Shown here: one piece after another, positions 31,350-46,856 of the stretch
Position numbering within the stretch: the first letter of the stretch is position 1
Layout of the letters: every line of letters starts with the position of its first letter
Assembly: GCA_964611345.1 (NCBI GenBank)
Contig: CAZSYU010000004.1
Span: 17,620 to 81,619 of the forward strand
Direction of reading: 5' to 3'
Length of the DNA: 64,000 bases
Origin: an uncultured Pseudomonadales bacterium
Lineage (GTDB): Bacteria; Pseudomonadota; Gammaproteobacteria; Pseudomonadales; Azotimanducaceae
The notes under the pieces: generated by a model
The model's input: the letters and a program-made list of their open reading frames with translations, nothing else
What the model was told of the DNA's origin: nothing
Database searches by the model: none
Made by a program: the position numbers and the translations under genes

Positions 31350-31359
31350 TAAACAACAC

Positions 31360-32709
31360 TCAAAAACTCCCCTGAACGGCCGCGGCAGCACGTTGGTAGG
31401 CTTTGGGCCGAAAGGTCTCATCATTGCCAAGACCAGAAAAGAGTCGGTCTAGCGAACTTGCGAGCTGGTCTGCCTCGCCGAGATATTCTGTCAACGTAAC
31501 AATGCTGAGCAGACCCTGTTCTGCTGTACCGTAGTCGACCATACGCCGAGACGCTGCCTGGCCAATCAGCCGCTTGCGTAACGCCCGCACCTTGGCGGTG
31601 CTCACATTTTGCACTTGCCACAGCGCTGACAGCTCATCGATGAGGCTTTGCAGTTGTGTGACTGAAGTGCCAAGTGCCCTGGGGTCACCCTGACCTGCAA
31701 CTACCAGTGCATCGATCGCCCGCTTCAATGCAGCTGTTTTATCTGGAGAAAGCTCTTCACTAATTAACTGTAGCGTACGAAAATGATGATCCGCCAGGCG
31801 TAAGCTGCCAGGCTCAACGCCCTGCTGCCGGCGCTCCTGATACCAGCGCAAGTCCTCCGGATCGAGCCCATGATGACAACTCTGACAGTCAAACATCGAA
31901 AACTCTGGGATAAACTTGGCGCCAGTAAAATAGTCACTACCTAACATTTTCAGAAACGCTCGAGATCCTTCCACCTGCCCGGTGAGCCACAACTGCACGC
32001 CCGCAAAGTTGCCCTTACGCTCTTTATAATCATCATCAACCGAAAAGTGCGGCGGCTGATTGGTCGTGAAATTCTCGAGTTCAAAACTCAACCTGGGATG
32101 GCCCGCGCCCATTATGCGGTGTGTGGTGAACTTATCCTGTGTGCCCAGATGACAACTCAAGCACAACTGCGCTCGCGCCGCTGGCTCCTCTGATGGGTAG
32201 AGGCCATTGGCGATATTATCGGCATGGGTATTGCCTGGATCATCATGGGTTTTAATCCAGTTTTCTGAACCGCCGTGGCACGCCTCGCAACCGACTCCAT
32301 CGTTCAGACTGAACTCCGGGCCACGTTTGTCCTGAGGGACATTGTCAGCATGACAATCCAAACAAATATCTGCGGTATGAGCACTGGCTAAGCCAAGTTT
32401 CGTCGCCATCAACTTGGATTCTGGTGACAACAAGGTCTTGTAGGCACGCGAATGGTAGTCCTGCGCTCGCCATATGCGATGCTCATTCAACCATACGGTG
32501 CGGTTGTCCTGACGACTCGATTTGCCGTGACACGCCCCTCCAGCACAGGACGACGCGCCATAGTGAATATTATCGTCAATGGTGGATACGTCAGCCGAGA
32601 CACTCATACCACACATAAGAATGGCACCAGCACAAATCCACAACGCCACATCACGAGCGGCCTGCCACTTGCTTTGGTATCGGTATTGGCACTGGTATCC
32701 ACCCTTCAC
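31360..32709 (-). CDS. Periplasmic multiheme c-type cytochrome (4x CXXCH + 1x CX4CH) with a helical C-terminal domain
   Basis: Signal-peptide-like N-terminus (ALWICAGAILMCGMSVSA). Motifs CAGGACH, CLDCH, CEACH, CLSCH and CQSCH. The GTG start shares 1 nt with the upstream TAG. Confidence 0.8.
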   Translation of the reverse strand: MKGGYQCQYRYQSKWQAARDVALWICAGAILMCGMSVSADVSTIDDNIHYGASSCAGGACHGKSSRQDNRTVWLNEHRIWRAQDYHSRAYKTLLSPESKLMATKLGLASAHTADICLDCHADNVPQDKRGPEFSLNDGVGCEACHGGSENWIKTHDDPGNTHADNIANGLYPSEEPAARAQLCLSCHLGTQDKFTTHRIMGAGHPRLSFELENFTTNQPPHFSVDDDYKERKGNFAGVQLWLTGQVEGSRAFLKMLGSDYFTGAKFIPEFSMFDCQSCHHGLDPEDLRWYQERRQQGVEPGSLRLADHHFRTLQLISEELSPDKTAALKRAIDALVVAGQGDPRALGTSVTQLQSLIDELSALWQVQNVSTAKVRALRKRLIGQAASRRMVDYGTAEQGLLSIVTLTEYLGEADQLASSLDRLFSGLGNDETFRPKAYQRAAAAVQGSF

Positions 32710-35700
32710 TATCTGGAACCCCCAGCACTAGTTGCGGTTGGCGTGGGTGCTTGTTCTGCGATAGCTTCATTACTGTCACCACCGCCAGCGCTACGCCCAC
32801 GTACGGCTGTACCAGTGCCTTCTGTATCCTGCACAAACCAGGGCTCGCCCGATTCATTGAGGTACAGCTTGTTCATGTCTTCACGGGAGAGTGGTCGAGA
32901 ACCACGGCGCCCAAACACCGCAATCTGTCCACCGGTTTCGTCTACACCCCGATCCCGATCAAGCCCTTTTGATAGTGCCAGTGCTGGCCGCTTGGTGGGA
33001 TAACTCGCGATTAGTTTGGGGTTTGGCTCGGGGCTAAAGCCATAGAAGTTCGGCTGCAGGGAGGGCGACGTCAACTGCACAACTTTCAACCCACCCGCGC
33101 CATCGGCAACGTAGGCAAATAGCGAAGCATTGGTGCTCGCTACGACAACATCATGTGCGTCGACAATCTTGCCACCATCGTTGTAGGTCTGGAGCAGGCG
33201 CATATTGTCGGGTTGAGTGACATCTACCACTGCGAGACCTTGTGCTCCTGCGGCAACATAGGCATAGGTTCGCGCCACGTACACGCGCTTGGCATCACTC
33301 AACGTAATCGTCGACGCTGATAATTTCGGTGCTTTGTTATTGGTGACATCAACGGTCTGCAATCCGTCTGCCGTCGTTACAAACAAATAGCGGAATTGCA
33401 GCGCCGTCGCTCGAGGGTCGCTCATGGGTATGCGGCTCACCAATTGCGGCTCCAGCGGATTCTGCAAAGACACCACCAATACTTCCGTTGGTAACGTCAG
33501 ATAGGCAATAGACCCCCCCAGTGTGATGTGACGAACACCATTTAGCAGACCGTCTGGGTTCCAGGTGAGTGCCCGGCTGAGGTTATTGTTGCGCAGCTCG
33601 CCGTCTTGCAGTGTATTAACGTCAACCAGAATCAAACCTTCTTGGGCATCTGTGATCACCGCGTAGTTGTAAATTGGATGGAAGGGCTGCTCCTGATTGG
33701 TGATACGCATCAGATCGCCTTCGTTCTTAAACGGTGCAATAGGTTGCGTAGACGGCAGCGCCATGCAGGTAGCGTTCTTCGACTTCACCTGTGTACCCTG
33801 ACCGAGCGGACTGAACGGCGTTGTCACAATGCGCTGCGAAAAGCCCTTGTTCGCAACGTTGGCAATGTCATAAACGCGCATTCCGTTTTTACCTTCGGCA
33901 ACGTACAAGTACTCGCCGCGCATTTGTAGACAGTTTGCAGGACCCGAACGATGCCCATACGCATGCTTCAGTACCCCGCCACGCGCTTCATGCTGCGCAA
34001 AGAAATCAGGGTAGGCGTACTTTTGCAGGTAACTGCCAATCACCGCCTGGGGCTCTTCCCACTCGGTTACTTGCACCGCAGAGACCTCGCCATCACCACC
34101 AACCCAGGCGTTATAGCCAACGAAGTTAACGAAGTTGGTTCCGAACATAAGTAGCTGGGCCATAATCGCGTTGTTATCGTTCTGTTCCGACAGATGACAA
34201 TCGCTGCAATTCTTGGTCTCTGATAATCGCACAGTGTGCGGGAAGTGAGGATTGAAGGCCTGCGAACTGAAACCTGAAGCGGCAACCGGTGGTTGCTGAA
34301 TATAGATTTTCTCACGGTTAGCATTTGTCGATGACAGTACCAACGCCGAGGTAGAGCGCACTGGCGCTATCTTGCCACCCTTGGCCGGACCCCTTCGTCC
34401 AAGCAGAAACATCTGATCCCGGGCAACCTGGGGGTTATAGCTGGCAAAGTTTCGACTCTTGCCCCCTTCATAGTGGTGTCGTTCGGTTTTCTTGTTCGCC
34501 TCAATGGGCAAGTGACAACCACCGCAGCTCGTTGTCCAGGACGTATGACAGGTGTAGCACTCCATTTCATCATAGGAATGGGCCAGATCAACACTGGCAA
34601 CCTGATTACCCCACTCCTGTGTTTCGGTGTTGTTAGACATGGTTTTGGCGCGCGCTGCCTTCGAGTTGTAATCCGAGTGTTTCGGATCGACCGCGTTCTT
34701 TACCAGACTGACTTTCCACTCAAGATTTTCATCGAGTGCTGAGCGCTGGTAGAGATCCCCGTTCACCCACTCGAAGCGAGGCCGCCCACCAGGCACCCGA
34801 AGCGACAGAAAATCTGTTCCGCCACCAATCGCAGCTGGTCCGGAGGCGTAGAGATTGGGCAGCTCTTTTGAGGTGCCGTGGCAGTCTTTGCAATCAACCT
34901 CAACAGCAAGTGCTACTTCTCCCTGAATGTGGCCGTTGCCGTGGTTGTCCTGGGCAAAGTGGCAATCAACACAGTGCATCCCCACATCCAGGTGAATCGA
35001 CGACATATGTACCGCCTTGTCGAATTTCTTGGGATCGTCGTTTTCAACCACGTTGTTCTTCGCATCGAGCAGATTACCCGTGCGATCACGTTTGAATACG
35101 GCTCGAAAGTTCCAGCCATGACCGTGATAGTCGGCGAACTGGGTATCATTTAATTCCGGATTCAGCTCAGATACTGCCTCCAGAAAATCCGTGTCCGCCC
35201 ATTTGCCACGGGGCGCTGCTCCTTCCGGATTGCGCTCCAACACTTCATGAATCTCTTCGCTGGTCGGATATTGTTGCTGCTCCGGCCACATCGCAGGCGC
35301 GTCCGATTCGTAGTCCCACATGGTGTAGCCCAGGTAACTGTTCACAAACATGTTCGGCTGGTGCATATGACAAATCATGCATTGTGATGTGGGTATCGCA
35401 TTGGTAAAGCTGTGCTTGATGGGATGCCCTGATTCGTTTTTTGGAATGGTCGGATCAAGCGTTGCGGTTTTACCAGTGTGGCCATGCTGGGCGTAACCGC
35501 CTGAATGTCGCGGATCACGGTCGTTGGCATACACAACGTGACAGGATGCGCAGCCAGAATTGCGATAATCACCCGGTTGATCGTTAGTGCCCATAAACCA
35601 GGTAAAAGGGTCATTCAGACGTGTTTTAGTGATATTGATTACGGGGACAGAAATGCGCGCACCCGTTGCCGGGCCACGGTTTGATTGACGAATATCAGGT

Positions 35701-36638
35701 CGACCCGGTTCCTCCAGACGTTGCACCAAGCCTAAGGAGTTGGGTATAGCCGTTTCCGGGAACAGGTTAATGATGTTGCGGCCGCCGCGCTCAAACACTC
35801 GAAACACATCACCGGGCTTGGTCGTTTCCCAGGCTGGCAAAGGCAACAGTTGCGGCAAAATACCTTTCTCATCTTTCAGCTGCTCCGCGAGCACCGTATC
35901 TAGCACCGGGCCTTTCAACACCGCTGGCTTACCGTCGGTGGTGTAAGATTCACCCAATATGTACTGCTTGAACGGCAAGATGCCGTTGTTGTAGGCCGCA
36001 CCGCCCCAAAGCATGGCGCCTGTGGCGTGCAACGACCGGACAGATTTCTCAATCTGATCCTGGTGACATGAACCACACGCCAGCTCAACGACACGATAGT
36101 CAGAAGGATTCACAAAACGCACAAACTCGCGGCTTTCTTTATTTAGCAGCGTGTACGTGCGCTCCGGATTGGCAGAATGCGGGTAGTGCCAAGCGTCAGG
36201 GTACTCCGGCAGTATGTGTGCCAACTCCTTAACCGCAATGTACTCATCCGACTGGTTGCCTTTAGGCAGACCATGACCGCCTTCGCCACCACTCTTGGCA
36301 TTACGCGGCACAAACTGACTGGCATCACCGCCGTGGCAATCGGTACAACCCAGATCCACGCCCGGCGCGTTGTGCATGGTTTTTTGATCAGATTCGGTAT
36401 GGCAAGATACGCAACCCGCACTCTTTTCACTGGCAGCAATAGCGCTTGGCTGATTTGCCGGGGCCGCAGGTGCCATGACGTAGTTACGCTCTACTTTTAT
36501 TACTGCCTCAGAAGCTTCAACCCCTTCGCTCCATATAGTACTGAAAACAAAGCCAGCACCGGTCACGCCAGCTGCTAACAAACTCAACGAAACCAGTAAG
36601 CCGCGCAACTTCTCAATTTTTCGCATCGAATTGTTCAT
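32709..36638 (-). CDS. Decaheme c-type cytochrome fused to a C-terminal LVIVD-like beta-propeller
   Basis: N-terminal signal/anchor helix. Ten CXXCH motifs between about nt 36416 and 34193, including a paired CYTCHTSWTTSCGGCH. The C-terminal ~350 aa (about nt 33940-32900) has repeated GMRVYDI, GLILVDVN, GLAVVDVT and GLKVVQLT strands. ATG 36638 is preceded by GAGGAG. Confidence 0.8.
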   Translation of the reverse strand: MNNSMRKIEKLRGLLVSLSLLAAGVTGAGFVFSTIWSEGVEASEAVIKVERNYVMAPAAPANQPSAIAASEKSAGCVSCHTESDQKTMHNAPGVDLGCTDCHGGDASQFVPRNAKSGGEGGHGLPKGNQSDEYIAVKELAHILPEYPDAWHYPHSANPERTYTLLNKESREFVRFVNPSDYRVVELACGSCHQDQIEKSVRSLHATGAMLWGGAAYNNGILPFKQYILGESYTTDGKPAVLKGPVLDTVLAEQLKDEKGILPQLLPLPAWETTKPGDVFRVFERGGRNIINLFPETAIPNSLGLVQRLEEPGRPDIRQSNRGPATGARISVPVINITKTRLNDPFTWFMGTNDQPGDYRNSGCASCHVVYANDRDPRHSGGYAQHGHTGKTATLDPTIPKNESGHPIKHSFTNAIPTSQCMICHMHQPNMFVNSYLGYTMWDYESDAPAMWPEQQQYPTSEEIHEVLERNPEGAAPRGKWADTDFLEAVSELNPELNDTQFADYHGHGWNFRAVFKRDRTGNLLDAKNNVVENDDPKKFDKAVHMSSIHLDVGMHCVDCHFAQDNHGNGHIQGEVALAVEVDCKDCHGTSKELPNLYASGPAAIGGGTDFLSLRVPGGRPRFEWVNGDLYQRSALDENLEWKVSLVKNAVDPKHSDYNSKAARAKTMSNNTETQEWGNQVASVDLAHSYDEMECYTCHTSWTTSCGGCHLPIEANKKTERHHYEGGKSRNFASYNPQVARDQMFLLGRRGPAKGGKIAPVRSTSALVLSSTNANREKIYIQQPPVAASGFSSQAFNPHFPHTVRLSETKNCSDCHLSEQNDNNAIMAQLLMFGTNFVNFVGYNAWVGGDGEVSAVQVTEWEEPQAVIGSYLQKYAYPDFFAQHEARGGVLKHAYGHRSGPANCLQMRGEYLYVAEGKNGMRVYDIANVANKGFSQRIVTTPFSPLGQGTQVKSKNATCMALPSTQPIAPFKNEGDLMRITNQEQPFHPIYNYAVITDAQEGLILVDVNTLQDGELRNNNLSRALTWNPDGLLNGVRHITLGGSIAYLTLPTEVLVVSLQNPLEPQLVSRIPMSDPRATALQFRYLFVTTADGLQTVDVTNNKAPKLSASTITLSDAKRVYVARTYAYVAAGAQGLAVVDVTQPDNMRLLQTYNDGGKIVDAHDVVVASTNASLFAYVADGAGGLKVVQLTSPSLQPNFYGFSPEPNPKLIASYPTKRPALALSKGLDRDRGVDETGGQIAVFGRRGSRPLSREDMNKLYLNESGEPWFVQDTEGTGTAVRGRSAGGGDSNEAIAEQAPTPTATSAGGSR

Positions 36639-36649
36639 CCCTGAGCTCC

Positions 36650-38629
36650 TCAAAACGCCAACACAAGGTTCATCTGGAAATAACCTGCTTCTTCATCCGG
36701 AAACAAATCCTTGAACCCCTTACCGGGAATCAGATGCGCATAGCTGGTGCGCACTACAATGTTCTGGGTTACCAGTGGTCGCCAGATTAGACTCAAGGAC
36801 AGGTCATGGCCGATCTCTTCGTCGATCGAGCCCTGGTTACGCACTGTTTCGAGCACCTGGGTGTGATCAAAGCGCATATAGTTGTAGTTGAAGCTCAATC
36901 GCAGTGATGGCAGGAGATCTGCATCGGCACCAATTCCAGCGAGTATCATCCCTGGATTGGTGAAGTTTGACTGGCCCTGTTCCTTGGACGATCGTAGATT
37001 GTTTAGCAGCCCATTCCGGGTAGACAAAGCAACGCGCCCCCCGCCAATCAACGGCACCGATTGCCGCAGCCAATAGCTGGTGTCTGAACCCGCGAATACA
37101 GGATTTTCGAATATGGCATCAAAGCCGGTTGCCCGATCGTCGAACGGGTCTTTATCACCACTGCCGTAGAGCAATGACCCACGAAGGCGCAACCAATCCA
37201 TATCAAAGCCGGCTTCAGCGGCAAAGAATCCAGCCCTGATATCAACCTTCCTCTCTTCGAACACACCCGGTTCAACGCTGCCTATCGCATAGTACGCAGA
37301 AGTTGTCAGATTAAGCCGACCAAAGTGGCCATCACCGTTGTAACCGAAGTACACCACATCGTATTTACGTGGCCGTTCGTCGCCAATGGAGGCGGGGCGA
37401 GCAATAAACTCGTTGTTGTCGAAGAAAAATTCATTGTCTTCCCGGTTACGGTTGTAAACAACGGTCGCCTGCGACACAAAACCAAGTTTCGGGAAGTCTT
37501 GCCAATAGAAGTTGGCTGCCACGACGTCGTCTTTGCGTAAATCTCGGGTAACGTCGTTCAACCCACTGTTAGTGTCCTTCTCGAGACGCCGGAAGTACGC
37601 AAGGTTGTACTGGAAGATGTTGTTATTGCGGTTACCAAACAGACGAACCCCTAGCTGGCTGTCCTGAAAAAGAAAGCCACGAAAATCGCTGTTAAACGGC
37701 TGAATACCAATTCGAAAACTGTCGAAATCGTATCGATCGCCTACGTTACGCAAGTGTCGATCATAGAACGCTGCCTGAATACCCAAGTGATGGTCAGTTC
37801 GTGACGTACCTCGGCTTGGTCGGGCGTTTACACCCTGAATCTCATCGAGATTTACATAGTTGATGCTCAGCACCGGCGTAAACCGAAACTCATGATCGGG
37901 AGGGCGAAACACCGTGTCGCCTTTCAGATACACAAATTCTGCAGCAAGATTTTGGTTAAAGAAGATTTGATCGGAAGTGCCAAAAATGTCGATGCCCCCG
38001 GGATCGTTAGTCGAGGACGCGCCCACAGGTGTCGGCACTTCGCGCACTTCCAATATACTGTCTGACAGCGCGTTAATGGAAAAGAACCATTCGTCGTCAT
38101 TGACGGGAATATCGCCCTTCAATACGTTGCGATTGTAGGGATCCCACCACGGATACTGATAACGAACCGAGTCATTGCCCACAACACCCCGGAACCCATC
38201 CAGGTTATCAACAATACGCCAGCGATCAGGCATGGCGAGCGTCACACAGTTCTGTGCACCCCCTTTGCAGTCTAGCGTCGGCGCCGCTGCCACACACTCG
38301 CTGCGGCCGGAACTGACGCAGGGCACTTTGGAAGGCGTATTTCTGCCACGTATCAGGCCATAGTCGAATACATTTTCTTCCCCGGCCGCACGCGCGGTCG
38401 AGCCTTCTACTCGATCGGCAGCGTTTTCTGCATCAGGACGCGGACACTCTACGCGTATGTAACCGGGTCGACGTCGATTGACTATGCGACCGCGATCGTC
38501 TGCGTAACAGACTTCAGCGGCTTCAACAGGCAGCGCGGACAGCATCAAGATCACCGTACCACCGGTGACACTGGCACCCAGCACGACCGCACATGACAGA
38601 GCTGCAGACAGTAATGATAGAACTTTCAT
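36650..38629 (-). CDS. Putative large outer-membrane beta-barrel (porin-like) protein with a Cys-rich N-terminal extension
   Basis: Signal peptide (MKVLSLLSAALSCAVVLGA...). Six Cys in the first ~100 mature residues. Long alternating aromatic/hydrophilic strands follow, with a C-terminal ...QMNLVLAF ending in Phe as in OMPs. The ATG directly abuts the upstream TAG. Confidence 0.6.
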   Translation of the reverse strand: MKVLSLLSAALSCAVVLGASVTGGTVILMLSALPVEAAEVCYADDRGRIVNRRRPGYIRVECPRPDAENAADRVEGSTARAAGEENVFDYGLIRGRNTPSKVPCVSSGRSECVAAAPTLDCKGGAQNCVTLAMPDRWRIVDNLDGFRGVVGNDSVRYQYPWWDPYNRNVLKGDIPVNDDEWFFSINALSDSILEVREVPTPVGASSTNDPGGIDIFGTSDQIFFNQNLAAEFVYLKGDTVFRPPDHEFRFTPVLSINYVNLDEIQGVNARPSRGTSRTDHHLGIQAAFYDRHLRNVGDRYDFDSFRIGIQPFNSDFRGFLFQDSQLGVRLFGNRNNNIFQYNLAYFRRLEKDTNSGLNDVTRDLRKDDVVAANFYWQDFPKLGFVSQATVVYNRNREDNEFFFDNNEFIARPASIGDERPRKYDVVYFGYNGDGHFGRLNLTTSAYYAIGSVEPGVFEERKVDIRAGFFAAEAGFDMDWLRLRGSLLYGSGDKDPFDDRATGFDAIFENPVFAGSDTSYWLRQSVPLIGGGRVALSTRNGLLNNLRSSKEQGQSNFTNPGMILAGIGADADLLPSLRLSFNYNYMRFDHTQVLETVRNQGSIDEEIGHDLSLSLIWRPLVTQNIVVRTSYAHLIPGKGFKDLFPDEEAGYFQMNLVLAF

Positions 38630-40822
38630 CTATAAGCCCTCGCAAGGTCGTTGAATGGAGGGATCAAACGAACCACCTTCCAGGAACGGCGATTGCGGAC
38701 ACTGGATGTAACGCAAGCGCGTATCGCGAGGCATGAGCTGGTCCGCACGTATTTCGGGTGGCGCGTTGTTTATGCTGCCCGTCTCAAGACCAGCCTCATG
38801 CAAGCCCAAAAACGAGATCATGTCGTCCTGATCTACGCCGTCACCGGATACGCCGATGCCACCTATGAGCATGTTGCCGCGATAGATAGGCACGCTGCCC
38901 GGAAAAATCTGAAAGCCATTAGCTACCCTGTTAGTCATCGCGGCCGGGCTGATAGATACCAGCCCGAGATCGATGAGCCCAGGCGTCGAGGTGCCCGGAT
39001 TAAACCCGGCACCGGCACACCCCTGGACCACATCTGGCGCGAGCGCCCCATCGGTGACGGAGAACAGCACATGTTGCACCAGAGCGTTAATCGCCAGATC
39101 GAGCTGCAAACCCGTCGAGAAAGGGCTCCACTCACCAGCTGGCTTGCTCAGTGGGCCAGCGCCTCGCTCATCAATACCATCAGGAAAAAATGGCCGCGAC
39201 AAATTGCCACCGGCTCGATCAGAAAACGCAAACGCGCCATTGGCCAGAGCCAGCGGATCTTCGAGGAAGTTACGCAGGTCGGTGACGTAATCACCGAGCG
39301 ACAGAACTTGAAACAACTCCGGGCCAGCATCTGTAAATCCAACATAATTAGTGGGCGGCAGAGCGTTCAAAAAGTCTGCGCTACTGGCGCTGGAAAAAAA
39401 TGCGGCGGTTCGTGCTTTTTGTAAGGAGACGTCCGCACCAAACACTGGAGCATCGCGAGTACGCACCATTCCCAGTATTTCACCATTGGTATCAACAACA
39501 GAGATAGTGACCCGGGCCGGTGAATTCAACGGCCGGCGAATCTGTGCACGCGCACTATTGGCTACCCTTAAGGCGTTACTCAACAGGGACTGGGTTTCCG
39601 CTACCGTAAGCTGATTACCGCCAGTTTCAACGGCGTCAGTGCCGGGTCGTGCCGGAAACCGATTGACATTGGCAGCGTTTACAAAAACAAACGCATCCTG
39701 ACCATCAAACCCACTTACCGCCGGCCTGATACCTGACGCTGGCGTACCGAAGGCCGTGCCGGCGCGAATGGTCCCGTCAAAATAGCCGGTAACATTAACA
39801 AGTGCACCCGTCGCGGTTGAGAACGCAGGCGCGTTGGCCGGATCACTCATCAGGTCTTCGACACCTGCATCACTGAAGCGAAAAGTCTTGCCATCTACGG
39901 TAATTCGATTGGCACGACGGTCGAGGGGCGCAGACCAACCGAAAGACGCAGCGACCGCAATCAGTTCGTCGATGTCTGTATCAATGTCACCAATGGCCGG
40001 GTCTATGCCATAGCGACCGTCCGCAATGACGCCCACGCCACCTACGGGCACACCGTTGCGATACAAAGGCAGGCCACCTGGATCAGCAGCCAAACCCAAT
40101 GGTGAACGATGGGGTCCTGGTTCTGCGGCTCCGCCACTAAAACGCTGTGAAAAGTCCGAACAGGAAAGCTGCGAAAACTGCACGCCAAACAGTGGTCCGG
40201 CCGGCTGGTTTAGCTCGCCGGGGTTAAAGTGCTCTTGCACGATCTGATTCGCGGTGCGAGTAGTAAACGCATTACCTTCACTCGATAGATAAGCGCCTGT
40301 TATAGCCTTAGCGATGGCACCAAGCTGGTCGATATTAAAGGGCACGGCTGCTGTAGGGAGCCGCAATCCCTCGAGGCCACCACTAATCAGCGGCGTCCCA
40401 TCGTCTGCCGTGGCAGTTGCAACCAGCATGGATCGATCCGCAGGATCACCCATGCGGAACACACCAAGCACATTACCCACCCGATCCGTTACCGCAATGG
40501 TGGCCTGGACATTTCGCGCCTGTGCCTCAGCCACACCTTGAGCGATGATTGTTTCTACATCAGCAACAGAGAGCGATTCGGGTACCGTTGTGCCGCACTC
40601 ACCAGAGCATGCCGGATCGGGACCGGTTACTCCTAGGGGTTCTTCCCGACCACCGCCGCCACAGCCACTAAATTGCGCAAGCACGAATACTGCGGCCGCA
40701 ATTTTTAGTTTCAGCGACGGTTTGTAACGGTCATTCCGTTTAAAGCGTTCATAACGTTTATAGGTTTCTTTGACAAAACCATGGCCCACACTCTGACCCT
40801 CTACCATCTTGGTTGCGTTCAT
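38630..40822 (-). CDS. Lipoprotein with two GlcG/HbpS-like (DUF336, heme-binding/degrading fold) modules
   Basis: Lipobox LAQFSGC. Module 1 has ATIAVTDRVGNVLGVFRMGD ... GGLPLYRNGVPVGGVGVIADG. Module 2 has VTISVVDTNGEILGMVRTRDAPVFGADVSLQKARTAAFF ... GSVPIYRGNMLIGGIGVSGDGVDQDD. The ATG overlaps the upstream TGA (ATGA) and is preceded by AGGAGG. Confidence 0.65.
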   Translation of the reverse strand: MNATKMVEGQSVGHGFVKETYKRYERFKRNDRYKPSLKLKIAAAVFVLAQFSGCGGGGREEPLGVTGPDPACSGECGTTVPESLSVADVETIIAQGVAEAQARNVQATIAVTDRVGNVLGVFRMGDPADRSMLVATATADDGTPLISGGLEGLRLPTAAVPFNIDQLGAIAKAITGAYLSSEGNAFTTRTANQIVQEHFNPGELNQPAGPLFGVQFSQLSCSDFSQRFSGGAAEPGPHRSPLGLAADPGGLPLYRNGVPVGGVGVIADGRYGIDPAIGDIDTDIDELIAVAASFGWSAPLDRRANRITVDGKTFRFSDAGVEDLMSDPANAPAFSTATGALVNVTGYFDGTIRAGTAFGTPASGIRPAVSGFDGQDAFVFVNAANVNRFPARPGTDAVETGGNQLTVAETQSLLSNALRVANSARAQIRRPLNSPARVTISVVDTNGEILGMVRTRDAPVFGADVSLQKARTAAFFSSASSADFLNALPPTNYVGFTDAGPELFQVLSLGDYVTDLRNFLEDPLALANGAFAFSDRAGGNLSRPFFPDGIDERGAGPLSKPAGEWSPFSTGLQLDLAINALVQHVLFSVTDGALAPDVVQGCAGAGFNPGTSTPGLIDLGLVSISPAAMTNRVANGFQIFPGSVPIYRGNMLIGGIGVSGDGVDQDDMISFLGLHEAGLETGSINNAPPEIRADQLMPRDTRLRYIQCPQSPFLEGGSFDPSIQRPCEGL

Positions 40823-42663
40823 TCCTTTCCACCTCCTGAGTCACCACCGGCGACTCTCCCCGCGTTGGTCGCCCACTGTTGCGCGCTTGCTTGCCCACCT
40901 AGTAAGGGTGCTCCATCAAAGCCCGCAAAGTTCCGCGGGTGATACGCGTGACAATCTATGCACGCCAATGCCACCTGAGATACACTATCGCGATCGCCAT
41001 GGCACTCATAACAGGTGGCCATCGTTGGCATAAGCAGATCGGTCGCACTGGCAGAATTCTTGGCGGCGTGACAGGTATCGCAGGCCTGATCACCCACCAA
41101 CAGCTCGCTACTTTCGCCATCACGCAACACCTGATGAGCGATATGATCGAATCGCGCATCGGGCACAAAATCCTGTGGCAGCTTCACTGGATGCACCCAG
41201 AACTGGTCTTCGATATCCTTCGAATCCTGGCGTTCAAACTGATGACACGCAGCACAGCCGATATCACCGGCAAACTGAGCTTCGACGATCTCTTTTAGTT
41301 CACGCTCCACACAGACGTCTGGCGCGTCAGTACAACCGGCCACTCGATCCGGACGATCTGGCAAACGGCGATAGGCAAACAGCTCACCCGTGTCATCAGG
41401 ATCGAAGTATTTTTTCAGTAACATGCCTTCAAGCGCCAACACCGCTTCTTTTAAACGCGCATGTGGCAAGCTCCGATCAGGGTCGGACTCATCAAAATCA
41501 AGTTGGTGACAATCCTGGCAATGCGCTTCCATGCTGACTGGCAAGAAATGTTCGCCGTCGATGCTCATGCTGTGGCAGGTTCCGCAAGTGAGAGCTTCAC
41601 CGGTTACTAAATCTGACACTTCGCCAACATCCAGATGAATATCGTGAGGAAACACAAGTTCCGAAGTTTCTGGCGAATTCGCTATCTCAGTTTCGCTGAC
41701 CGCTTCGATCCGCCATCCATCATCTTTCGATCCGGCAAACTCCTCGAGCGTGAAGCGCGGTAGCGAGTATTCGTAAACCGGATGGGTTTCTGGAGTGAAG
41801 CCCGTCACTGCTGCTAACGGATCTATATCGCGATGAATGCCACCACCAGAGTCAGTGCCTGCTGCGTGGCATTGCACACAGTCACCATCGGCGTCGCGAA
41901 CTAAAGTGCTCGGCTCGTTGTGCTCCCGATGACAGACGCCACAACGCTCATTTGCATTGGCACCGAAGTCGAGCCCGCCAGACCCAAGTTCGCCAGGCAC
42001 GGAGGTCGCGGCTAAAAACGCGCTGCTGACATGATCTTGAATTGAACCGTGGCACGCCTCACAAGCCTCGTTTTGAACACGTTCGAAGGGTTTGCCGTGA
42101 CAACCGGCACAATTTTCGCCCGTGACCAACTCATGCGCGGCATGCAGCTCACCAGACGTCCATACATGATCTGAAAAGAGCCCACTAACCGGCGCCTGGG
42201 TGGCGCGTTCGCCGGAAAACAGAAAGGGCACAATAAACATACCCAGTAACACAACCAGTGCACCAATCCATGCGAACGCACGTTTCGCTAAAAACGTATC
42301 AGCCAAGCTGAGTTTTTGTGTTGACAACACCGAAACATGATCTGCTGCACGACGCACTATCAACATGCCGTCAAAACCACCCGGCGCTTCTTCTACATGC
42401 ACGCTAGCACCAGGTAGCTCTATGAGATCGCCGGATCGCAAAACACAGCGCTTAACCACATTGCCGTTAACCTGCACACCATCACGAGTGGTGCTGCGCA
42501 AGACTAGCCCTTCTCGTCCCAGCTCAATACTCGCGTGGCGCAGTTCAAGCAGCGGTAGTTGCAGGTGCGCATCGTTAGCAGACCCGAGAATAACGCGATC
42601 AATCCCGTGTTCTTGGTCTATGTGGCCGCCTGCTTCCCTGGCGATGCGTATCAAGAGGTCCAT
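40819..42663 (-). CDS. FHA-like domain / single TM / periplasmic decaheme c-type cytochrome fusion protein
   Basis: The N-terminal ~100 aa are FHA-like (RVILGS...LRHASIEL...TRDGVQVNGNVV...GDLIELPG). One TM (AFAWIGALVVLLGMFIVPFLF). Then ten CXXCH motifs (CAGCH, CEACH, CGVCH, CVQCH, CGTCH, CQDCH, CAACH, CDTCH, CYECH, CIDCH). ATG 42663 lies 4 nt after the upstream TAA. The track ORF starts at 42693. Confidence 0.8.
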   Translation of the reverse strand: MDLLIRIAREAGGHIDQEHGIDRVILGSANDAHLQLPLLELRHASIELGREGLVLRSTTRDGVQVNGNVVKRCVLRSGDLIELPGASVHVEEAPGGFDGMLIVRRAADHVSVLSTQKLSLADTFLAKRAFAWIGALVVLLGMFIVPFLFSGERATQAPVSGLFSDHVWTSGELHAAHELVTGENCAGCHGKPFERVQNEACEACHGSIQDHVSSAFLAATSVPGELGSGGLDFGANANERCGVCHREHNEPSTLVRDADGDCVQCHAAGTDSGGGIHRDIDPLAAVTGFTPETHPVYEYSLPRFTLEEFAGSKDDGWRIEAVSETEIANSPETSELVFPHDIHLDVGEVSDLVTGEALTCGTCHSMSIDGEHFLPVSMEAHCQDCHQLDFDESDPDRSLPHARLKEAVLALEGMLLKKYFDPDDTGELFAYRRLPDRPDRVAGCTDAPDVCVERELKEIVEAQFAGDIGCAACHQFERQDSKDIEDQFWVHPVKLPQDFVPDARFDHIAHQVLRDGESSELLVGDQACDTCHAAKNSASATDLLMPTMATCYECHGDRDSVSQVALACIDCHAYHPRNFAGFDGAPLLGGQASAQQWATNAGRVAGGDSGGGKE

Positions 42664-42667
42664 AGGC

Positions 42668-43543
42668 TTACCAGTACCAAAACACGACGACAATATGGAT
42701 AACGAGAGCGAACAAAACAGCTATGGAAAGCGGCACATGAATATACAACCAGGCCTGCAACAAGCCCTGCATTTGCACATCCCGACGCACGCGCCGCAAC
42801 AAATCCTGACGGCGCGCAGTGAGGGACATCAGATGGCGCAACGCTGTTGTTTCTTTTCCATCGCTCGCTTGCGTTGCAGCCTCCGATAGAAAGCGCAACA
42901 GATTACGTTGATCAAAATTGCTGCGGTGCTGATTGCCTTCAGAGCTGGCTTCCTGGAACGTAGATCGATCGCTGCCCAGCAGCTGCCGGAGAAAACCACC
43001 TCCGACTCGGGTTTGGTCCAAGGCCGAGCGCACTGTATTGTTTATATCGTCAGAGCAATCCGCCGCTCGCTCGAGGCTCGCCAGCTCAAGACTTTCCAAC
43101 TCTTCAATATTCTCTGCTCGACTGCGCGTTTTACGCACCGACGATAATCGTCGCGGCAGCGAGAGGTAGACAAACATGCCAAACACGCCGCTGGCGATCA
43201 CCGCCATCATTAACCAGAAGAACAGCGAATGAATGTTCCAGCCGAGTTGCCCAGCGCTATGGAACAGGCTTACCCCGATGAGTGCAGTACCCAGATAAAC
43301 GTGCGCACTTACCCAACCTTTTAGCGACCCACCTCGCCCATAGCGGCGCTTGCGCACTCCCAGATAGTTCAACCAAAAGATGAGCAATCCAGCAATGATG
43401 CCAAGCGTCAGTCCTTGCCAGGTACCGCCACTAGGTGGAGTCGTTGCGTCTTGCAGCCAATACAGTCCAAAGCTGATCGCAAGCAATCCAAGCGCTACCC
43501 ACAGATACCGACCGCCTGCATGTTGCAACGCGTTCTGACTCAT
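42668..43543 (-). CDS. Five-TM inner-membrane protein with two His pairs (candidate di-heme b electron carrier)
   Basis: Four N-terminal TMs, a ~130-aa hydrophilic loop and a C-terminal TM. His81/His95 lie on TM3 and His269/His283 on TM5, each pair spaced i/i+14. The ATG overlaps the upstream TGA (ATGA). Confidence 0.55.
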   Translation of the reverse strand: MSQNALQHAGGRYLWVALGLLAISFGLYWLQDATTPPSGGTWQGLTLGIIAGLLIFWLNYLGVRKRRYGRGGSLKGWVSAHVYLGTALIGVSLFHSAGQLGWNIHSLFFWLMMAVIASGVFGMFVYLSLPRRLSSVRKTRSRAENIEELESLELASLERAADCSDDINNTVRSALDQTRVGGGFLRQLLGSDRSTFQEASSEGNQHRSNFDQRNLLRFLSEAATQASDGKETTALRHLMSLTARRQDLLRRVRRDVQMQGLLQAWLYIHVPLSIAVLFALVIHIVVVFWYW

Positions 43544-46086
43544 AGCGCGTCTCGCTCAATAATGCGCACAAAGTCTTTTGGACTGACGCGTTGCGCCGCG
43601 CCGGTCGGACAAGCGGATACACAGGCAGGACCACCGGTAACATCAAAGCAGGCATCACACTTCTTGGCCTTTTTCACCTGCCCTTCGGGTCCCTTCGCAG
43701 CTTTATCTTCGCCAGGACCAGACCCCATGCCAAACAACAGCCAGCTGAACAAACCCGGCTTCGCCGGCGCCTCAGGCGCCATCCGAATCACATCGTACGG
43801 GCAGTTACTCTGGCAGTTGCCGCAGCCAATACAGGAATCATCGATAAACACTTCGCCATCACTCGCCCGGTGAATGGCATTAGGGGGGCAATCCTTCATG
43901 CAGTGCGGTTGCTGACAGTGACGACACGATATGGGTATATGAACGTGGGCCATCGTACTGCCTGATTTCCGGTCGAGCCGCGAAATACCGTCGTGTGTTT
44001 CAGCACACGCGGTCTCACAGTTATCGCAACCGACGCAGAGATATTCATCGATAATGAGAGCGTTAGTGGCCTCTCCCAAACCGTCGCCCAACATAAATTC
44101 CAAAACCTGAGAAGACTCACGACGAGTTTCCCACTGCGAGTACTTCATCAAATCGCGACTCGCCCGCGCATCGACAATATCTTCCTGCTCCATATCGAAC
44201 ATCATCAAGCGTCGATACTGTTCCTCAGTGATCTCCAGCGTTTCAGTTAACACCGACGCCTCAGCAACATTGGTTCGTGCGTTCTGGTTGTACATGGCCA
44301 TAAAACCGACCATTTCTCCGGCCCGTTCTTCGGCGATCAGATTTCGCTGTTCATCAATTTCGTTGAATATCAACACGGTGCCGGAGCGAATGAGATGCAG
44401 ACTGTTACTGTCATCCCCAGGTTCCCACAAGCGTTGACCCGCTTTAAAACTATGCTGCTGAATCTCATCCGCAATGGGGCGCAGCTCCTCAACCGTCGCC
44501 GCCGGAGCAAAGTGGCGCTGCAACTCGCGCACAATGAACACCCAGTCAATGCCTTCGCGCACCGCATCATTGGAGGCGATGAGTTTCAAAATGGTTCGGC
44601 GTGGTGTTTCGAGAACAATGCAGTTGTCGCCCGCCATGGCTGTCTCGGGTCTGGGCTGGCCAGCAATAAGACTCATTTCCCCGAAGAACTCACCCCGCCC
44701 AAGGCGTCGTTCACCACCAGCAAAACTCGACGACCCAAGCACCACTTCGCCGTCGAGTACCGTATAAAACGACACACCAAAGTCACCTTCGGTATAAAAC
44801 TCATGTCCTTTTGGAATAACTTTGGTCACACTGGGCTGGGCCTTTGAATACGCCTCATCGCCAGAAATTTTTCGTTCCACGTCCACAAGCGACAGCTCCG
44901 CGTCCTCGATGCTGTCTTCGTCAGGCAGCCCGACATACAGCGAGCTTTCAATCACCATCTCGCGAAATGCCAGCACACTAAGCTGACGAAACATCGGAAT
45001 CCGTGACATGAACAGACTAATGAGTTCGTCGGCATCCCGATCATAGGGCAGGCCAGCAAACTGAAACTCAATCAGCTCATGATCTGCCGGTTTGACGAAA
45101 TTGCCATTCGCAAACTCGACAACATCATAGCCCTGGTTCATCGCCTGCTTGATGAGTGGGCACCCTGCCAACGCACCGACCACATAAAGGCCTGGCACAC
45201 TACTTTCGTAGTGTTCGCTCAATACCGGCAACGCATCAGCGCCAGCGTGGCTCATCGTCATGCCGCAGCCTTCGAGAAAACCACGGGGGGGAATAGAACC
45301 AAGCCGGGCAATAATGCGATCGGCCTCAATCAACTCTTCGCCTTCTGCGGTGGCGATGGTCACCTTCAGGTCCGGACCTGTACCGTCACCCGCAACGATG
45401 CTGTCGATTGAGGCGGAATACAAACACCCCAGGCTAACGTCATCATTGTTCGCGGCTGCGAGAATGGCGTTTAGGTTACCTTCTTTAGCGCGGGCAAATT
45501 CCGCCTTGCGATTTAGAATGTACACCTGGTTTTGCTCAGACAGCGCCAACGCATTTTCAATCGCGGAATCGCCAGCCCCAACCACAATTATGGTCTCGTT
45601 GCTGTATTCGCCTGGATCGTCCAGCTGATACTGAATATTCGGCAGCTCTTCGCCAGTTACTCCCAAGCGGCGAGGGTTACCCTGGGTGCCGATCCCGAGC
45701 ACAACGTTTGCCGCTGTTACCGTCTGACCATTGGCAAGCTTTATCTCAAAACCGCCGCGCTCACCCTGAATACCAGTAACTTCGGCGCCGTATTGCACAT
45801 GCAGTGCTTGATCTTCGGCCGCGGTGTCCCAAATACCTAGAATTTCTTCGCGCTTGCCGGCATCAAATCCCACATCACTACGCAAACGCAAATAGCCCGG
45901 CTCGGCCATAACGTGCTTGCCTTTCTGATACCGATAGATGGTCTTGGAGAGATGATCGAAGCCTTCAAGCAGCACATAGCTGGGAGTGGTCGCGCCACTT
46001 TGCTTGTCACGCGCTGCTGCGCGCGCTGCTGCCGACAACCCCGCTGGTCCAGAACCAACGATAGCTAACTGATATTGCACTTCCAT
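43540..46086 (-). CDS. Fusion protein: FAD/NAD(P)-binding pyridine nucleotide-disulfide oxidoreductase + two cyclic-nucleotide-binding domains + 4Fe-4S ferredoxin domain
   Basis: Two Rossmann motifs (LAIVGSGPAGLSAA and IIVVGAGDSAIENA). cNMP phosphate-binding cassettes FFGEMSLIAGQPRPETAMA and AGEMVGF...ARTNVAEA. Four Cys-cluster motifs (CVGCDNCETAC, CRHCQQPHCMKDCP, CIGCGNCQSNCP, CDAC...CVSACP). No signal peptide. ATG 46086 is preceded by GGGGAGA. The track ORF starts at TTG 46092. Confidence 0.85.
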   Translation of the reverse strand: MEVQYQLAIVGSGPAGLSAAARAAARDKQSGATTPSYVLLEGFDHLSKTIYRYQKGKHVMAEPGYLRLRSDVGFDAGKREEILGIWDTAAEDQALHVQYGAEVTGIQGERGGFEIKLANGQTVTAANVVLGIGTQGNPRRLGVTGEELPNIQYQLDDPGEYSNETIIVVGAGDSAIENALALSEQNQVYILNRKAEFARAKEGNLNAILAAANNDDVSLGCLYSASIDSIVAGDGTGPDLKVTIATAEGEELIEADRIIARLGSIPPRGFLEGCGMTMSHAGADALPVLSEHYESSVPGLYVVGALAGCPLIKQAMNQGYDVVEFANGNFVKPADHELIEFQFAGLPYDRDADELISLFMSRIPMFRQLSVLAFREMVIESSLYVGLPDEDSIEDAELSLVDVERKISGDEAYSKAQPSVTKVIPKGHEFYTEGDFGVSFYTVLDGEVVLGSSSFAGGERRLGRGEFFGEMSLIAGQPRPETAMAGDNCIVLETPRRTILKLIASNDAVREGIDWVFIVRELQRHFAPAATVEELRPIADEIQQHSFKAGQRLWEPGDDSNSLHLIRSGTVLIFNEIDEQRNLIAEERAGEMVGFMAMYNQNARTNVAEASVLTETLEITEEQYRRLMMFDMEQEDIVDARASRDLMKYSQWETRRESSQVLEFMLGDGLGEATNALIIDEYLCVGCDNCETACAETHDGISRLDRKSGSTMAHVHIPISCRHCQQPHCMKDCPPNAIHRASDGEVFIDDSCIGCGNCQSNCPYDVIRMAPEAPAKPGLFSWLLFGMGSGPGEDKAAKGPEGQVKKAKKCDACFDVTGGPACVSACPTGAAQRVSPKDFVRIIERDAL

Positions 46087-46092
46087 GGCCAA

Positions 46093-46212
46093 TCTCCCCA
46101 GATCAACGCTTAGTGTTGTCCGTAACCTACATTCATGACAACCTTTTTATTCTCGATTTCGATAACCTATTCTTGCCGCAGTTTGACTACTGCCATTACG
46201 CAGGTTTTGACC
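46093..46212. promoter_or_regulatory. Divergent control region between the cytochrome operon (-) and the TM-FHA gene (+)
   Basis: 120-nt AT-richer spacer. It carries a direct repeat of TAACCTA at 46123-46129 and 46163-46169 (40-bp period). No promoter boxes were assigned. Confidence 0.35.
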
Positions 46213-46836
46213 ATGGCTTTTTTCGACGAACTTAAACGCCGTAAAGTGTTTCGTGTCACCAGCCTCTACGCTGTGACTGCGTGGGGAGCATCCATGGGTG
46301 CGGCCGAACTCTTCCCCACCTTTGGCCTGCCCGATGAATCGGTGCGCTGGTTCGTTGTGGGTGCCTTCGGCTTGCTGCCAGTTGTCGCATTGCTTGCCTG
46401 GCTTTACGAACTGACACCCGGGGGTATCGAACGTGACGCCGCCGATTGTCCCGACACTACCACGCACCTGGCACCCCAGCGCGCCGCCAACGAGTTGACT
46501 GCGAGCTGGCGCGACAAAAACTGGACCTTTCAGAACACCTTCACCATCGGCCGCGATATCACCTGTGACTTGCATATCGACGATCCGAAAATATCGCGTC
46601 GCCATGCTCGGGTAGTCGCTCAACATCAGCATTGGTACCTCGAAGACCTGGGCAGCAGCAATGGCACCAGCGTCAACGGCGAACTCATTACGCGAACCAG
46701 TCTCTCGGGCTCGGCCAAAGTTACGCTTTACGAGGGCGGCGACGAGATCACCTTGAGCATCAAAGTTCCGGGTGGCGTCGCCACTGTGCTCGCAGACCCC
46801 CCTCCGAACAATGCGATCACCCAACGTGATACCTAA
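46213..46836 (+). CDS. Membrane-anchored FHA-domain protein
   Basis: N-terminus MAFFDELKRRKVFRV, then two TMs, then a canonical FHA domain (TIGRD ... ISRRHARV ... GSSNGTSVNG). Start at ATG 46213. The track ORF starts at 46135. Confidence 0.8.
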   Translation: MAFFDELKRRKVFRVTSLYAVTAWGASMGAAELFPTFGLPDESVRWFVVGAFGLLPVVALLAWLYELTPGGIERDAADCPDTTTHLAPQRAANELTASWRDKNWTFQNTFTIGRDITCDLHIDDPKISRRHARVVAQHQHWYLEDLGSSNGTSVNGELITRTSLSGSAKVTLYEGGDEITLSIKVPGGVATVLADPPPNNAITQRDT

Positions 46837-46856
46837 GCAGCACCCTGTATTAGCCA

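Follow-up and report, generated by a model that had tools for sequence, protein, structure and literature searches.

To our knowledge, there are few systems (CymA, ImcH/CbcL, NetBCD and similar) for which it is known how electrons enter or leave periplasmic multiheme wires through the inner membrane. We analyzed a 64,000-nt stretch of contig CAZSYU010000004.1 from an uncultured Pseudomonadales bacterium (the window). It contains a gene for a 614-aa protein predicted to combine a cytoplasmic forkhead-associated (FHA) domain, one transmembrane (TM) helix and a periplasmic part with ten c-type hemes (the FHA-decaheme protein). Next to it lie genes for a 291-aa protein with five TM helices (the 5-TM protein) and an 850-aa flavo-iron-sulfur (FeS) protein; these three genes form a core. 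Our preferred reading, held with about even confidence, is that the FHA-decaheme protein is the subunit that faces the periplasm in a conserved inner-membrane module for electron transfer, with the FHA domain serving for docking. New here are the size and breadth of the protein family, the likely diheme cytochrome b partner, the FeS wire of four clusters, an extended operon that would span the envelope, and the finding that the kinase and PP2C phosphatase are clade-specific. If the reading is correct, the module would be a different solution to the crossing, in which an NAD(P)H-linked FeS wire in the cytoplasm feeds a diheme cytochrome b and a membrane-anchored decaheme cytochrome, and it would hold the first signaling-type FHA domain built into a respiratory-type cytochrome. 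Among the carriers are Halieaceae, Steroidobacteraceae, Woeseiaceae, Marinobacter, Lysobacterales, Nitrosomonas and Gallionellaceae, which are dominant groups in marine sediments and soils and are not considered electroactive.

Comparison with described systems

Similar proteins have been noticed in the Gallionellaceae. A preprint of May 2026 describes a nonaheme cytochrome c of Ferrigenium straubiae, 'NHC', that has one TM helix and an FHA domain in the cytosol (bioRxiv 10.64898/2026.01.22.701106, section 6.3.2). NHC adjoins a 5-TM protein and a [4Fe-4S] protein and was expressed in every condition examined, and its authors state that theirs is the first report of an FHA domain with a multiheme domain and call its function unclear (bioRxiv 10.64898/2026.01.22.701106). 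A Gallionellaceae pangenome from 2023 tabulates, without discussion, a cluster 403 annotated as 'Forkhead-associated protein, 10 CXXCH' in 27 genomes (PMC9900912 Table 1). We found no description of the whole extended operon in the literature beyond these two papers. NHC and cluster 403 are like the FHA-decaheme protein in having a cytosolic FHA domain, one TM helix, a periplasmic multiheme domain, adjacent 5-TM and [4Fe-4S] proteins and no signal peptides; compared by description and not by sequence, they almost certainly belong to the same family. Nine hemes were reported for NHC, and our protein is predicted to have ten. The description of the Ferrigenium locus covers the three-gene core only, beside nirK and SHP genes, whereas downstream of the core in the window come HbpS-like, barrel-like, LVIVD-decaheme and c554-like genes, and PP2C, kinase and FHA genes are present as well. 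No redox motif was found in the 5-TM protein in the preprint; the H-x13-H pairs described below were first seen in the present analysis.

By analogy of domain order, the closest architectural counterpart is SctD/YscD. In SctD/YscD/PrgH, from the inner-membrane ring of the type III secretion system (T3SS), an N-terminal cytoplasmic FHA fold is likewise followed by a single TM helix and a periplasmic domain. The FHA domain of SctD/YscD lacks the canonical phosphothreonine-binding residues and is a docking platform for cytoplasmic components. Unlike SctD, the FHA-decaheme protein has a periplasmic decaheme domain in place of ring-building motifs, and there are no secretion-system genes in its operon.

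Several cytochromes (CbcL, ImcH, the NapC/NirT proteins CymA and NrfH, and ActA) also have a multiheme c domain that is anchored in the inner membrane and faces the periplasm, and in Geobacter CbcL this domain is paired with an FdnI/HydC-like diheme b part, as we propose here. All of them lack a cytoplasmic FHA domain and have no cytoplasmic flavo-FeS partner dedicated to them. The b and c parts of the present system are separate polypeptides, and the putative b subunit has five TM helices and a 120-aa cytoplasmic insert.

The 5-TM protein itself recalls the NADPH oxidase (NOX)/ferric-reductase proteins and MsrQ-Fre, in which two His pairs about 14 residues apart also lie on two parallel TM helices. 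As in NOX, TM3 and TM5 are both predicted to run from inside to outside, the cytoplasmic loop between TM2 and TM3 is polybasic, and a flavin/FeS donor would stand on one face. The four-cluster ferredoxin domain of the flavoprotein is like FdnH, which feeds FdnI. However, in neither sequence nor fold does the 5-TM protein match MsrQ, YodB or FdnI significantly beyond one helix, the FeS wire would be cytoplasmic and not periplasmic as in FdnH/FdnI, and the proposed acceptor is a decaheme cytochrome c and not O2, a metal or MsrP.

The best sequence and structure matches of the N-terminal domain are the FHA domains of GarA/OdhI, Rv1747 and FhaA, with which it has the conserved G, H, N-G and G-D in common. 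It differs from these canonical regulators in having S28 and E40 where they have Arg and Ser, and in being fused to a membrane cytochrome instead of being soluble or part of a transporter.

Domain architecture of the FHA-decaheme protein

The start codon of the gene is correctly placed. The ATG at 42663 lies 4 nt past the stop of the upstream gene (42668), and an identical 614-aa product is already recorded in public collections. Codons 1-105 have a ratio of nonsynonymous to synonymous substitution rates (dN/dS) of ~0.07 in comparisons with two orthologues of 80% and 69% identity (proportions of nonsynonymous and synonymous differences 0.14-0.21 and ~0.72-0.74, respectively), and G27 is retained in 166/167 relatives. 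(Here and below, counts out of 167 refer to representatives, one per 50%-identity cluster.) Taken together, these four observations indicate that the start is real. The strong purifying selection on codons 1-105 means that the N-domain is translated, which excludes a true start downstream of the TM helix, an objection that the first-pass annotation of the window had raised against its own proposal.

Residues 1-128 alone match the Pfam FHA family PF00498 with 25.0 bits and E=2.5e-5 (curated cut-off 20.7). Pfam FHA was not listed in a scan of the whole protein at E<=0.01; because the isolated N-domain does match, we take this to be a reporting or score-correction effect and not evidence against an FHA domain. 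A profile made from 26 N-domains of the family matches the FHA domain of GarA with E=4.9e-13, followed by Mb1858, Rv0020c, Rv1747 and OdhI. Singly, 23 of the 26 match PF00498 (best E=5e-12), and 22 also match Yop-YscD_cpl, the Pfam family of the cytoplasmic domain of T3SS YscD. An AlphaFold2 model, computed from a 22-sequence alignment, has 11 beta strands in residues 2-105, with a predicted local distance difference test score (pLDDT) of 83-94 over residues 1-100. When this model was compared with the PDB using Foldseek, all 50 matches listed were FHA-type folds, with TM-scores on the target of 0.6-0.73 for the best; they include Ki67, Slr1951, GarA, Rv1747, Rv0020c, OdhI, DgcB, MDC1 and kinesin-3, as well as the T3SS FHA structure 4d9v. 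The FHA fold, which the first-pass annotation had proposed from strand order, is thus supported by Pfam, by the GarA profile match and by the predicted structure.

Residues 129-150 are the sole strongly hydrophobic segment of the protein, and correspond to nt 42279-42214, within three nucleotides of the helix placed earlier at 42279-42217. This region is highly conserved (P146 and W168 167/167, G171 166/167, R128 160/167, W132 140/167), and the invariant proline together with the four other conserved residues indicates that the helix is not a generic anchor. With K127-R128 on its N-terminal side and no further hydrophobic segment, the protein is predicted to have its N-terminus in the cytoplasm and its C-terminus in the periplasm, in agreement with the topology first suggested.

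Ten CXXCH motifs begin at residues 185, 201, 241, 262, 360, 382, 470, 528, 551 and 568, all downstream of the TM helix as noted originally. The thirty residues of these motifs are invariant in 166-167/167 representatives, which excludes a chance occurrence of CXXCH. Exactly ten further His residues are conserved to the same extent (177, 211, 248, 294, 340, 343, 401, 507, 510 and 575; 166-167/167). Ten motifs and ten further His are consistent with ten c hemes, each with bis-His ligation, and we predict that the 614-aa protein holds this number. Across the family, 162/167 representatives have ten motifs and five have nine. Three Pfam families (Cytochrome_C7, c3_2 and Paired_CXXCH_1) score above cut-off in the heme domain, and the family profile has weak PDB matches to GSU1996, Hmc and ActA of Alternative Complex III, the last with E=9e-7 over the final three heme motifs. 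Membership in two known groups was considered and rejected. For the MtrA/DmsE decaheme family (TIGR03508) the score was 16.7 bits against a cut-off of 192.2, and for NapC/NirT (CymA, NrfH) there was no Pfam match and the PDB profile match to NrfH was marginal (E=0.045). The first heme motif lies 35 residues past the TM helix, whereas in NapC/NirT proteins the tetraheme domain follows the anchor directly.

The analysis therefore confirms the architecture, predicted from sequence and model, of a cytoplasmic FHA domain, one membrane helix and a periplasmic decaheme part. The three-part order given in the first-pass annotation was right, and every detail it had observed was correct.

The phosphate site of the FHA domain

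Both residues that normally contact phosphothreonine are replaced in the protein, as had been noticed at first sight. In the alignment with GarA, the G-R pair corresponds to G27-S28, and the Ser of S-R-R-H-A corresponds to E40 (E40-L-R-H43-A). The protein retains His43, N66-G67 and G78-D79, and these structural residues of the FHA domain are common in the family (G27 166/167, H43 131/167, N66 121/167, G67 126/167, G78 145/167, D79 120/167). At position 28, Arg is found in 107/167 representatives (64%) and Ser in 41/167. At position 40, there are 83 Ala, 15 Glu and only 8 Ser among the 167. Judged by these alignments, the FHA Ser is lost almost family-wide (159/167), and the Arg is lost in the clade of the protein studied here. 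Docking in this organism would then probably be phospho-independent, given S28 and E40.

Directly after the last FHA strand there is a family-specific P-x-G-F-D motif (residues 93-98, ~42370-42387). It lies outside the generic FHA signature and is conserved at P94 (108/167), G96 (139/167) and D98 (124/167), and it is a candidate partner-contact site.

Family size and distribution

With an exhaustive profile search we obtained 10,698 proteins when the limit was E<=0.001; under the stricter limit of E<=1e-30, the family comprises at least 1657 50%-identity clusters. Of the 150 best matches, nearly all align from profile position 1 and so include the N-domain. A scan of 185,579 species genomes (one per species) gave 442 relatives, mostly in Gammaproteobacteria. 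The closest are in Pseudomonadales metagenome-assembled genomes (MAGs), at 80% identity, and betaproteobacterial relatives were also recovered, for example in a Nitrosomonas MAG. Carriers include Steroidobacteraceae, Halieaceae (Parahaliea, Haliea, Halioglobus, Pseudohalioglobus, Kineobactrum), Woeseiaceae, Granulosicoccus, Marinobacter, Wenzhouxiangella, Lysobacterales, Nitrosomonas and Methylococcales. Some of them are in culture (Steroidobacter flavus, Parahaliea, Pseudohalioglobus lutimaris, Kineobactrum sediminis, Marinobacter sp. S6332), so that the hypothesis is directly testable.

The family is therefore large, widespread and essentially uncharacterized, and its architecture has only recently been noticed. 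The earlier statement that there is no characterized example holds, but the architecture is not unique: it is that of this large family, part of which had already been noticed in the Gallionellaceae. A word-indexed search returned 24 matches and gave the impression of a rare protein; in the light of the profile search and the genome scan, we rejected this as an artefact of sensitivity. The 90% cluster to which the protein belongs is represented by a 56-aa fragment.

Conserved operon and partner proteins

We compared 84 related loci (L003-L086); each count below covers those loci that have enough flanking DNA. The order of genes is constant: flavo-FeS protein, 5-TM protein, FHA-decaheme protein, HbpS-like protein, a protein of ~650 aa, an LVIVD decaheme protein (~1300 aa) and a c554-like cytochrome. 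In 79/79 loci, the gene immediately upstream of the FHA-decaheme gene is that for the 5-TM protein, and the flavoprotein gene is in the operon in 65/68, with one locus (L084) having it at the far end instead. The c554-like gene is present in 54/58 loci. One locus (L005) carries the three-gene core only, and the Ferrigenium locus, judged by its description, does so as well. In the window, stops and starts within the operon overlap, abut or stand 4 nt apart. From this arrangement, the FHA-decaheme protein is predicted to be translationally coupled to the 5-TM protein and the flavoprotein, and is almost always encoded with them. Docking of the flavo-FeS protein by the N-domain would fit this near-obligate linkage.

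The 850-aa flavoprotein consists of a TrxR/YpdA-like FAD/NAD(P)H domain, two cyclic nucleotide monophosphate (cNMP)-binding domains and a ferredoxin domain for four [4Fe-4S] clusters. Its 16 Cys, arranged in four clusters, are conserved in 66/67 flavoproteins, and the FeS part resembles the four-cluster subunits FdnH, DmsB, NrfC and AegA.

The 291-aa protein was modeled by AlphaFold2 with five TM helices (pLDDT 84.6), TM4 and TM5 being separated by a cytoplasmic insert of ~120 aa. It has two H-x13-H pairs, H81/H95 on TM3 and H269/H283 on TM5, the members of each pair being 14 residues apart. H81, H95 and also H105 are conserved in 79/79 sequences, and H269 and H283 in 78/79. The loop between TM2 and TM3 is rich in K/R, with an invariant VRKRRY, and the insert between TM4 and TM5 is K/R-rich as well; from these, TM3 and TM5 are both predicted to run from inside to outside. 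If the two helices are parallel, H81 and H269 could ligate a heme b on the cytoplasmic side, and H95 and H283 a second one on the periplasmic side. Cytochrome b, the NOX/ferric-reductase domains and FdnI have the same arrangement of paired His on parallel helices. The 5-TM protein is thus a probable diheme cytochrome b, a well-motivated proposal that falls short of a family assignment.

The proteins encoded downstream of the core could continue the path across the envelope. The 730-aa protein has three HbpS-like (DUF336) stretches, and its N-terminus ends in ...FSGC, resembling a lipoprotein signal; the start of its gene overlaps the stop of the FHA-decaheme gene by 4 nt, and in most loci its gene immediately follows the decaheme gene. 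Domains of the HbpS type bind heme or other tetrapyrroles. The 659-aa protein has no Pfam or NCBIfam match. It is likely, from its C-terminus (...YFQMNLVLAF, typical of outer-membrane beta-barrels), to be an outer-membrane beta-barrel, and we list it as a candidate. In size it is near the MtrB-type porins, which suggests that it and the 1314-aa LVIVD decaheme protein form a porin-cytochrome arrangement. The 1314-aa protein has a sub-threshold match to NCBIfam ExtM (63 bits, E=1.4e-17; cut-off 800). ExtM is a c-type cytochrome of the Geobacter operon for selenite/tellurite reduction.

Proposed mechanism and alternative explanations

In the reading that we prefer, electrons would pass from NAD(P)H and FAD through the four [4Fe-4S] clusters to the cytoplasmic-side heme b, the periplasmic-side heme b and the ten c hemes. 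The 5-TM protein would bind its two b hemes stacked across the bilayer, and the TM helix of the FHA-decaheme protein would pack against it. The ten c hemes would in turn deliver electrons to the co-operonic HbpS-like lipoprotein, the probable barrel, the ten-heme LVIVD propeller and the c554-like cytochrome. The FHA domain would hold or position the flavo-FeS subunit, or else bind the 120-aa cytoplasmic insert of the b subunit. The first-pass annotation had seen in the fusion protein itself a direct link between a cytoplasmic module and an electron wire. This does not stand as worded, since the FHA-TM segment has no cofactor and cannot carry electrons across the membrane; the 291-aa protein, which had been overlooked, is the likely diheme-b route. 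Control would be exerted by cNMP binding to the flavoprotein, which a nearby adenylate cyclase could feed, providing a second input, and in the clade of the window also by a separate kinase, PP2C and canonical FHA proteins. The membrane kinase and separate FHA proteins of this clade may have taken over phospho-control. Reasoning from the membrane potential and the potential of NAD(P)H, outward flow from cytoplasm to periplasm would be the thermodynamically easier direction, although reasoning of this kind does not establish it.

A broader version of this reading, which we regard as rather doubtful, takes the three-gene core for an unrecognized NOX-like but far longer, regulated wire across the envelope, with the FHA domain as a clutch on the cytoplasmic dehydrogenase. 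Electrons from NAD(P)H may then reach a complex of outer-membrane barrel and multiheme propeller through the two b and ten c hemes, and the clutch may be phospho-dependent in members with G-R, its role having passed to the separate kinase, PP2C and FHA proteins in members with G-S. If true, this would be a complete conduit in thousands of mostly aerobic Gammaproteobacteria.

Several points weigh against the docking and electron-transfer reading. The comparison with SctD suggests for the FHA domain a role in docking or assembly on the cytoplasmic side, but it is an analogy and not a result. The canonical Arg of G-R is kept in the majority of the family noted above, so that binding of a phosphorylated or acidic ligand may be the ancestral mode of the FHA domain, and the locus in the window holds unusually many kinase, PP2C and FHA genes. 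The AlphaFold2 model of the heme domain is poor (pLDDT <50 over most of residues 151-295 and 531-614) and was left out of the fold comparison because of its low confidence. The b subunit could also be a quinone site, with the flavoprotein a mere regulator. All six members of the 5-TM family that were tested match PF01292 (prokaryotic cytochrome b561) sub-threshold (best E=3e-6), and the protein in the window reaches 14.6 bits (cut-off 30.1) over its last helix only. Comparison of the 5-TM family with FdnI, MsrQ and YodB by hhalign gave nothing significant; with E. coli FdnI, H269/H283 fall on FdnI H155/H169, in an alignment of one helix that is not significant (E=0.034, probability 1.5%). A Foldseek search of the PDB with the 5-TM model gave nothing significant (best E=0.1), and a PDB sequence profile search with the family gave nothing meaningful. 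The proposal of a diheme b is thus founded on the His pattern, and we did not assign the protein to a named cytochrome b family.

A different role for the FHA domain would be that of a switch, in which it reads phosphothreonine that the membrane kinase sets on itself, the flavoprotein or the b subunit, and PP2C reverses the signal, gating electrons. The genes for the kinase, PP2C, the two-FHA protein and the small FHA protein are all in the window, and three of the products are membrane-anchored; in the family, the frequent Arg, the conserved His43 and N-G and a PP2C gene directly after the operon in 38/58 loci point the same way. A few Ser/Thr positions track the state of the Arg (b subunit 134; flavoprotein 292 and 484) in an exploratory comparison, but these signals are weak and uncorrected for phylogeny, and we did not use the covariation candidates (which also include b subunit 141) as evidence. 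In the protein itself, however, both phosphate-contacting residues are replaced, the acidic E40 should disfavor phosphate binding, and the Ser is missing from nearly all relatives. The distribution of PP2C also runs opposite to a simple model in which the FHA domain reads a local kinase. A PP2C gene directly follows the operon in 22/26 loci with G-S and 8/8 with G-G (30/34 together) but in only 1/12 with G-R, a pattern that is phylogenetically confounded. The kinase and PP2C genes are thus clade-specific, lie outside the conserved core and associate with the degenerate and not the canonical FHA domain. For this reason the canonical FHA and kinase proteins, which had been put forward as possible docking partners, are unlikely to represent the conserved function. 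Overall we consider the switch improbable; it is possible for members with G-R and unlikely for the protein in the window.

We give a somewhat better, though still low, chance to a quinone-linked module, in which the 5-TM cytochrome b and the decaheme protein form a quinol dehydrogenase or quinone reductase comparable to CbcL or to CymA/NrfH/ActA that ties periplasmic multiheme proteins to the quinone pool, and the flavo-FeS protein and FHA domain are regulators or an alternative input. A weak but consistent similarity links the 5-TM protein to cytochromes b of the FdnI/HydC type, a family with quinone sites, and the arrangement parallels CbcL, which has a diheme b and 9 c hemes. Quinone reduction is what the Ferrigenium preprint proposes (bioRxiv 10.64898/2026.01.22.701106), and in one locus (L004) the 5-TM gene is the first of the operon and no flavoprotein gene lies upstream of it. 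On the other hand, the flavoprotein is in the operon almost everywhere, and a pure regulator would hardly be expected to carry a four-cluster FeS wire as nearly invariant as this one. We identified no quinone-site motif in the system, and the comparison with NapC/NirT proteins described above gave no Pfam match and a marginal PDB profile match to NrfH. It is very improbable, in our view, that the protein is a receptor instead of a wire, with the ten-heme domain sensing redox state and the TM helix relaying it to an FHA output that recruits kinase, PP2C and cNMP machinery. FHA domains are typically signaling modules, and the locus does hold an adenylate cyclase, cNMP-binding domains, a kinase and PP2C. 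But the signaling genes are absent from many loci of the family, and what is seen here, ten invariant bis-His hemes and tight operon linkage with an FeS wire, a diheme-b-like protein and two further multiheme proteins, is characteristic of electron transfer chains.

Neighboring genes in the window

The features discussed are listed in Table 1.

Table 1. Positions of the FHA-decaheme gene, its domains and neighboring genes in the window
Feature	Position	Strand	Remarks
FHA-TM-decaheme cytochrome c gene	40819..42663	-	614 aa
Cytoplasmic FHA-fold domain, residues 1-105	42349..42663	-	Pfam, GarA profile, AlphaFold2, Foldseek, dN/dS
Linker, residues 106-128, ends K127-R128	42280..42348	-	R128 kept in 160/167
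Predicted single TM helix / signal anchor, residues 129-150	42214..42279	-	Hydropathy, AlphaFold2 helix, conservation
Predicted periplasmic decaheme domain, residues 151-580	40924..42213	-	CXXCH, conserved His, Pfam, PDB profile
291-aa 5-TM protein	42668..43543	-	Stop 4 nt before ATG of FHA-decaheme gene
850-aa cytoplasmic flavoprotein	43540..46092	-	FAD/NAD(P)H, cNMP-binding and ferredoxin domains
730-aa HbpS-like (DUF336) protein, lipoprotein-like N-terminus	38630..40822	-	Family scan, synteny
659-aa secreted protein, signal peptide, candidate outer-membrane beta-barrel	36650..38629	-	C-terminus, synteny
1314-aa secreted protein, ten CXXCH and LVIVD beta-propeller repeats	32709..36653	-	
449-aa secreted cytochrome c554-like protein, 4 CXXCH and 1 variant motif	31360..32709	-	
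PP2C Ser/Thr phosphatase, C-terminal TM anchor	30273..31430	-	Clade-specific accessory
351-aa two-FHA protein, C-terminal TM	29180..30235	-	
Small FHA-domain protein, divergent from operon	46135..46836	+	PF00498 E=2.4e-18
Membrane-anchored Ser/Thr protein kinase	52561..54168	-	Clade-specific accessory

The first domain of the 351-aa two-FHA protein has the canonical G-R, S-x-x-H and T-N-G. The orthologue of the small FHA protein in another locus (L001) is called as a 195-aa FHA gene; an equally long antisense open reading frame at 46147-46857(-) has no family match, is probably spurious and was rejected as an operon gene. The kinase, PP2C and the two-FHA protein each have a single hydrophobic helix near the C-terminus, so that the signaling set would be tethered to the membrane. 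The N-terminus of the kinase contains tandem RDDAT-like repeats (RDDATRL, RDDATQV, RDDAQQT), which could be phospho-acceptor sites. In a count that ignores kinship, a dedicated phosphatase, and often a kinase as well, travels with the degenerate FHA domain.

Two further genes adjoin those for PP2C and the two-FHA protein, one for glutamate dehydrogenase (27733-29097(-)) and one for a 4-TM adenylate/guanylate cyclase (26327-27622(-)). A glutamate dehydrogenase gene also adjoins the operon in other species (in 11 of the 51 loci that have upstream sequence), which recalls the control of glutamate metabolism by the FHA proteins GarA/OdhI in actinobacteria. Between the kinase gene and the operon are genes for a Sel1-repeat/caspase (C14) protein (50491-52437(-)) and a Calx-beta autotransporter (46857-50459(-)), with homologues upstream in 13/51 and 9/51 loci, respectively. 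Because they recur in other genera, they may belong to the same accessory module. Farther away, a 178-aa protein (23964-24500(-)), encoded next to a uroporphyrinogen decarboxylase gene (25289-26314), has an N-terminal TFIIB-type zinc ribbon and weak matches to multiheme cytochrome models.

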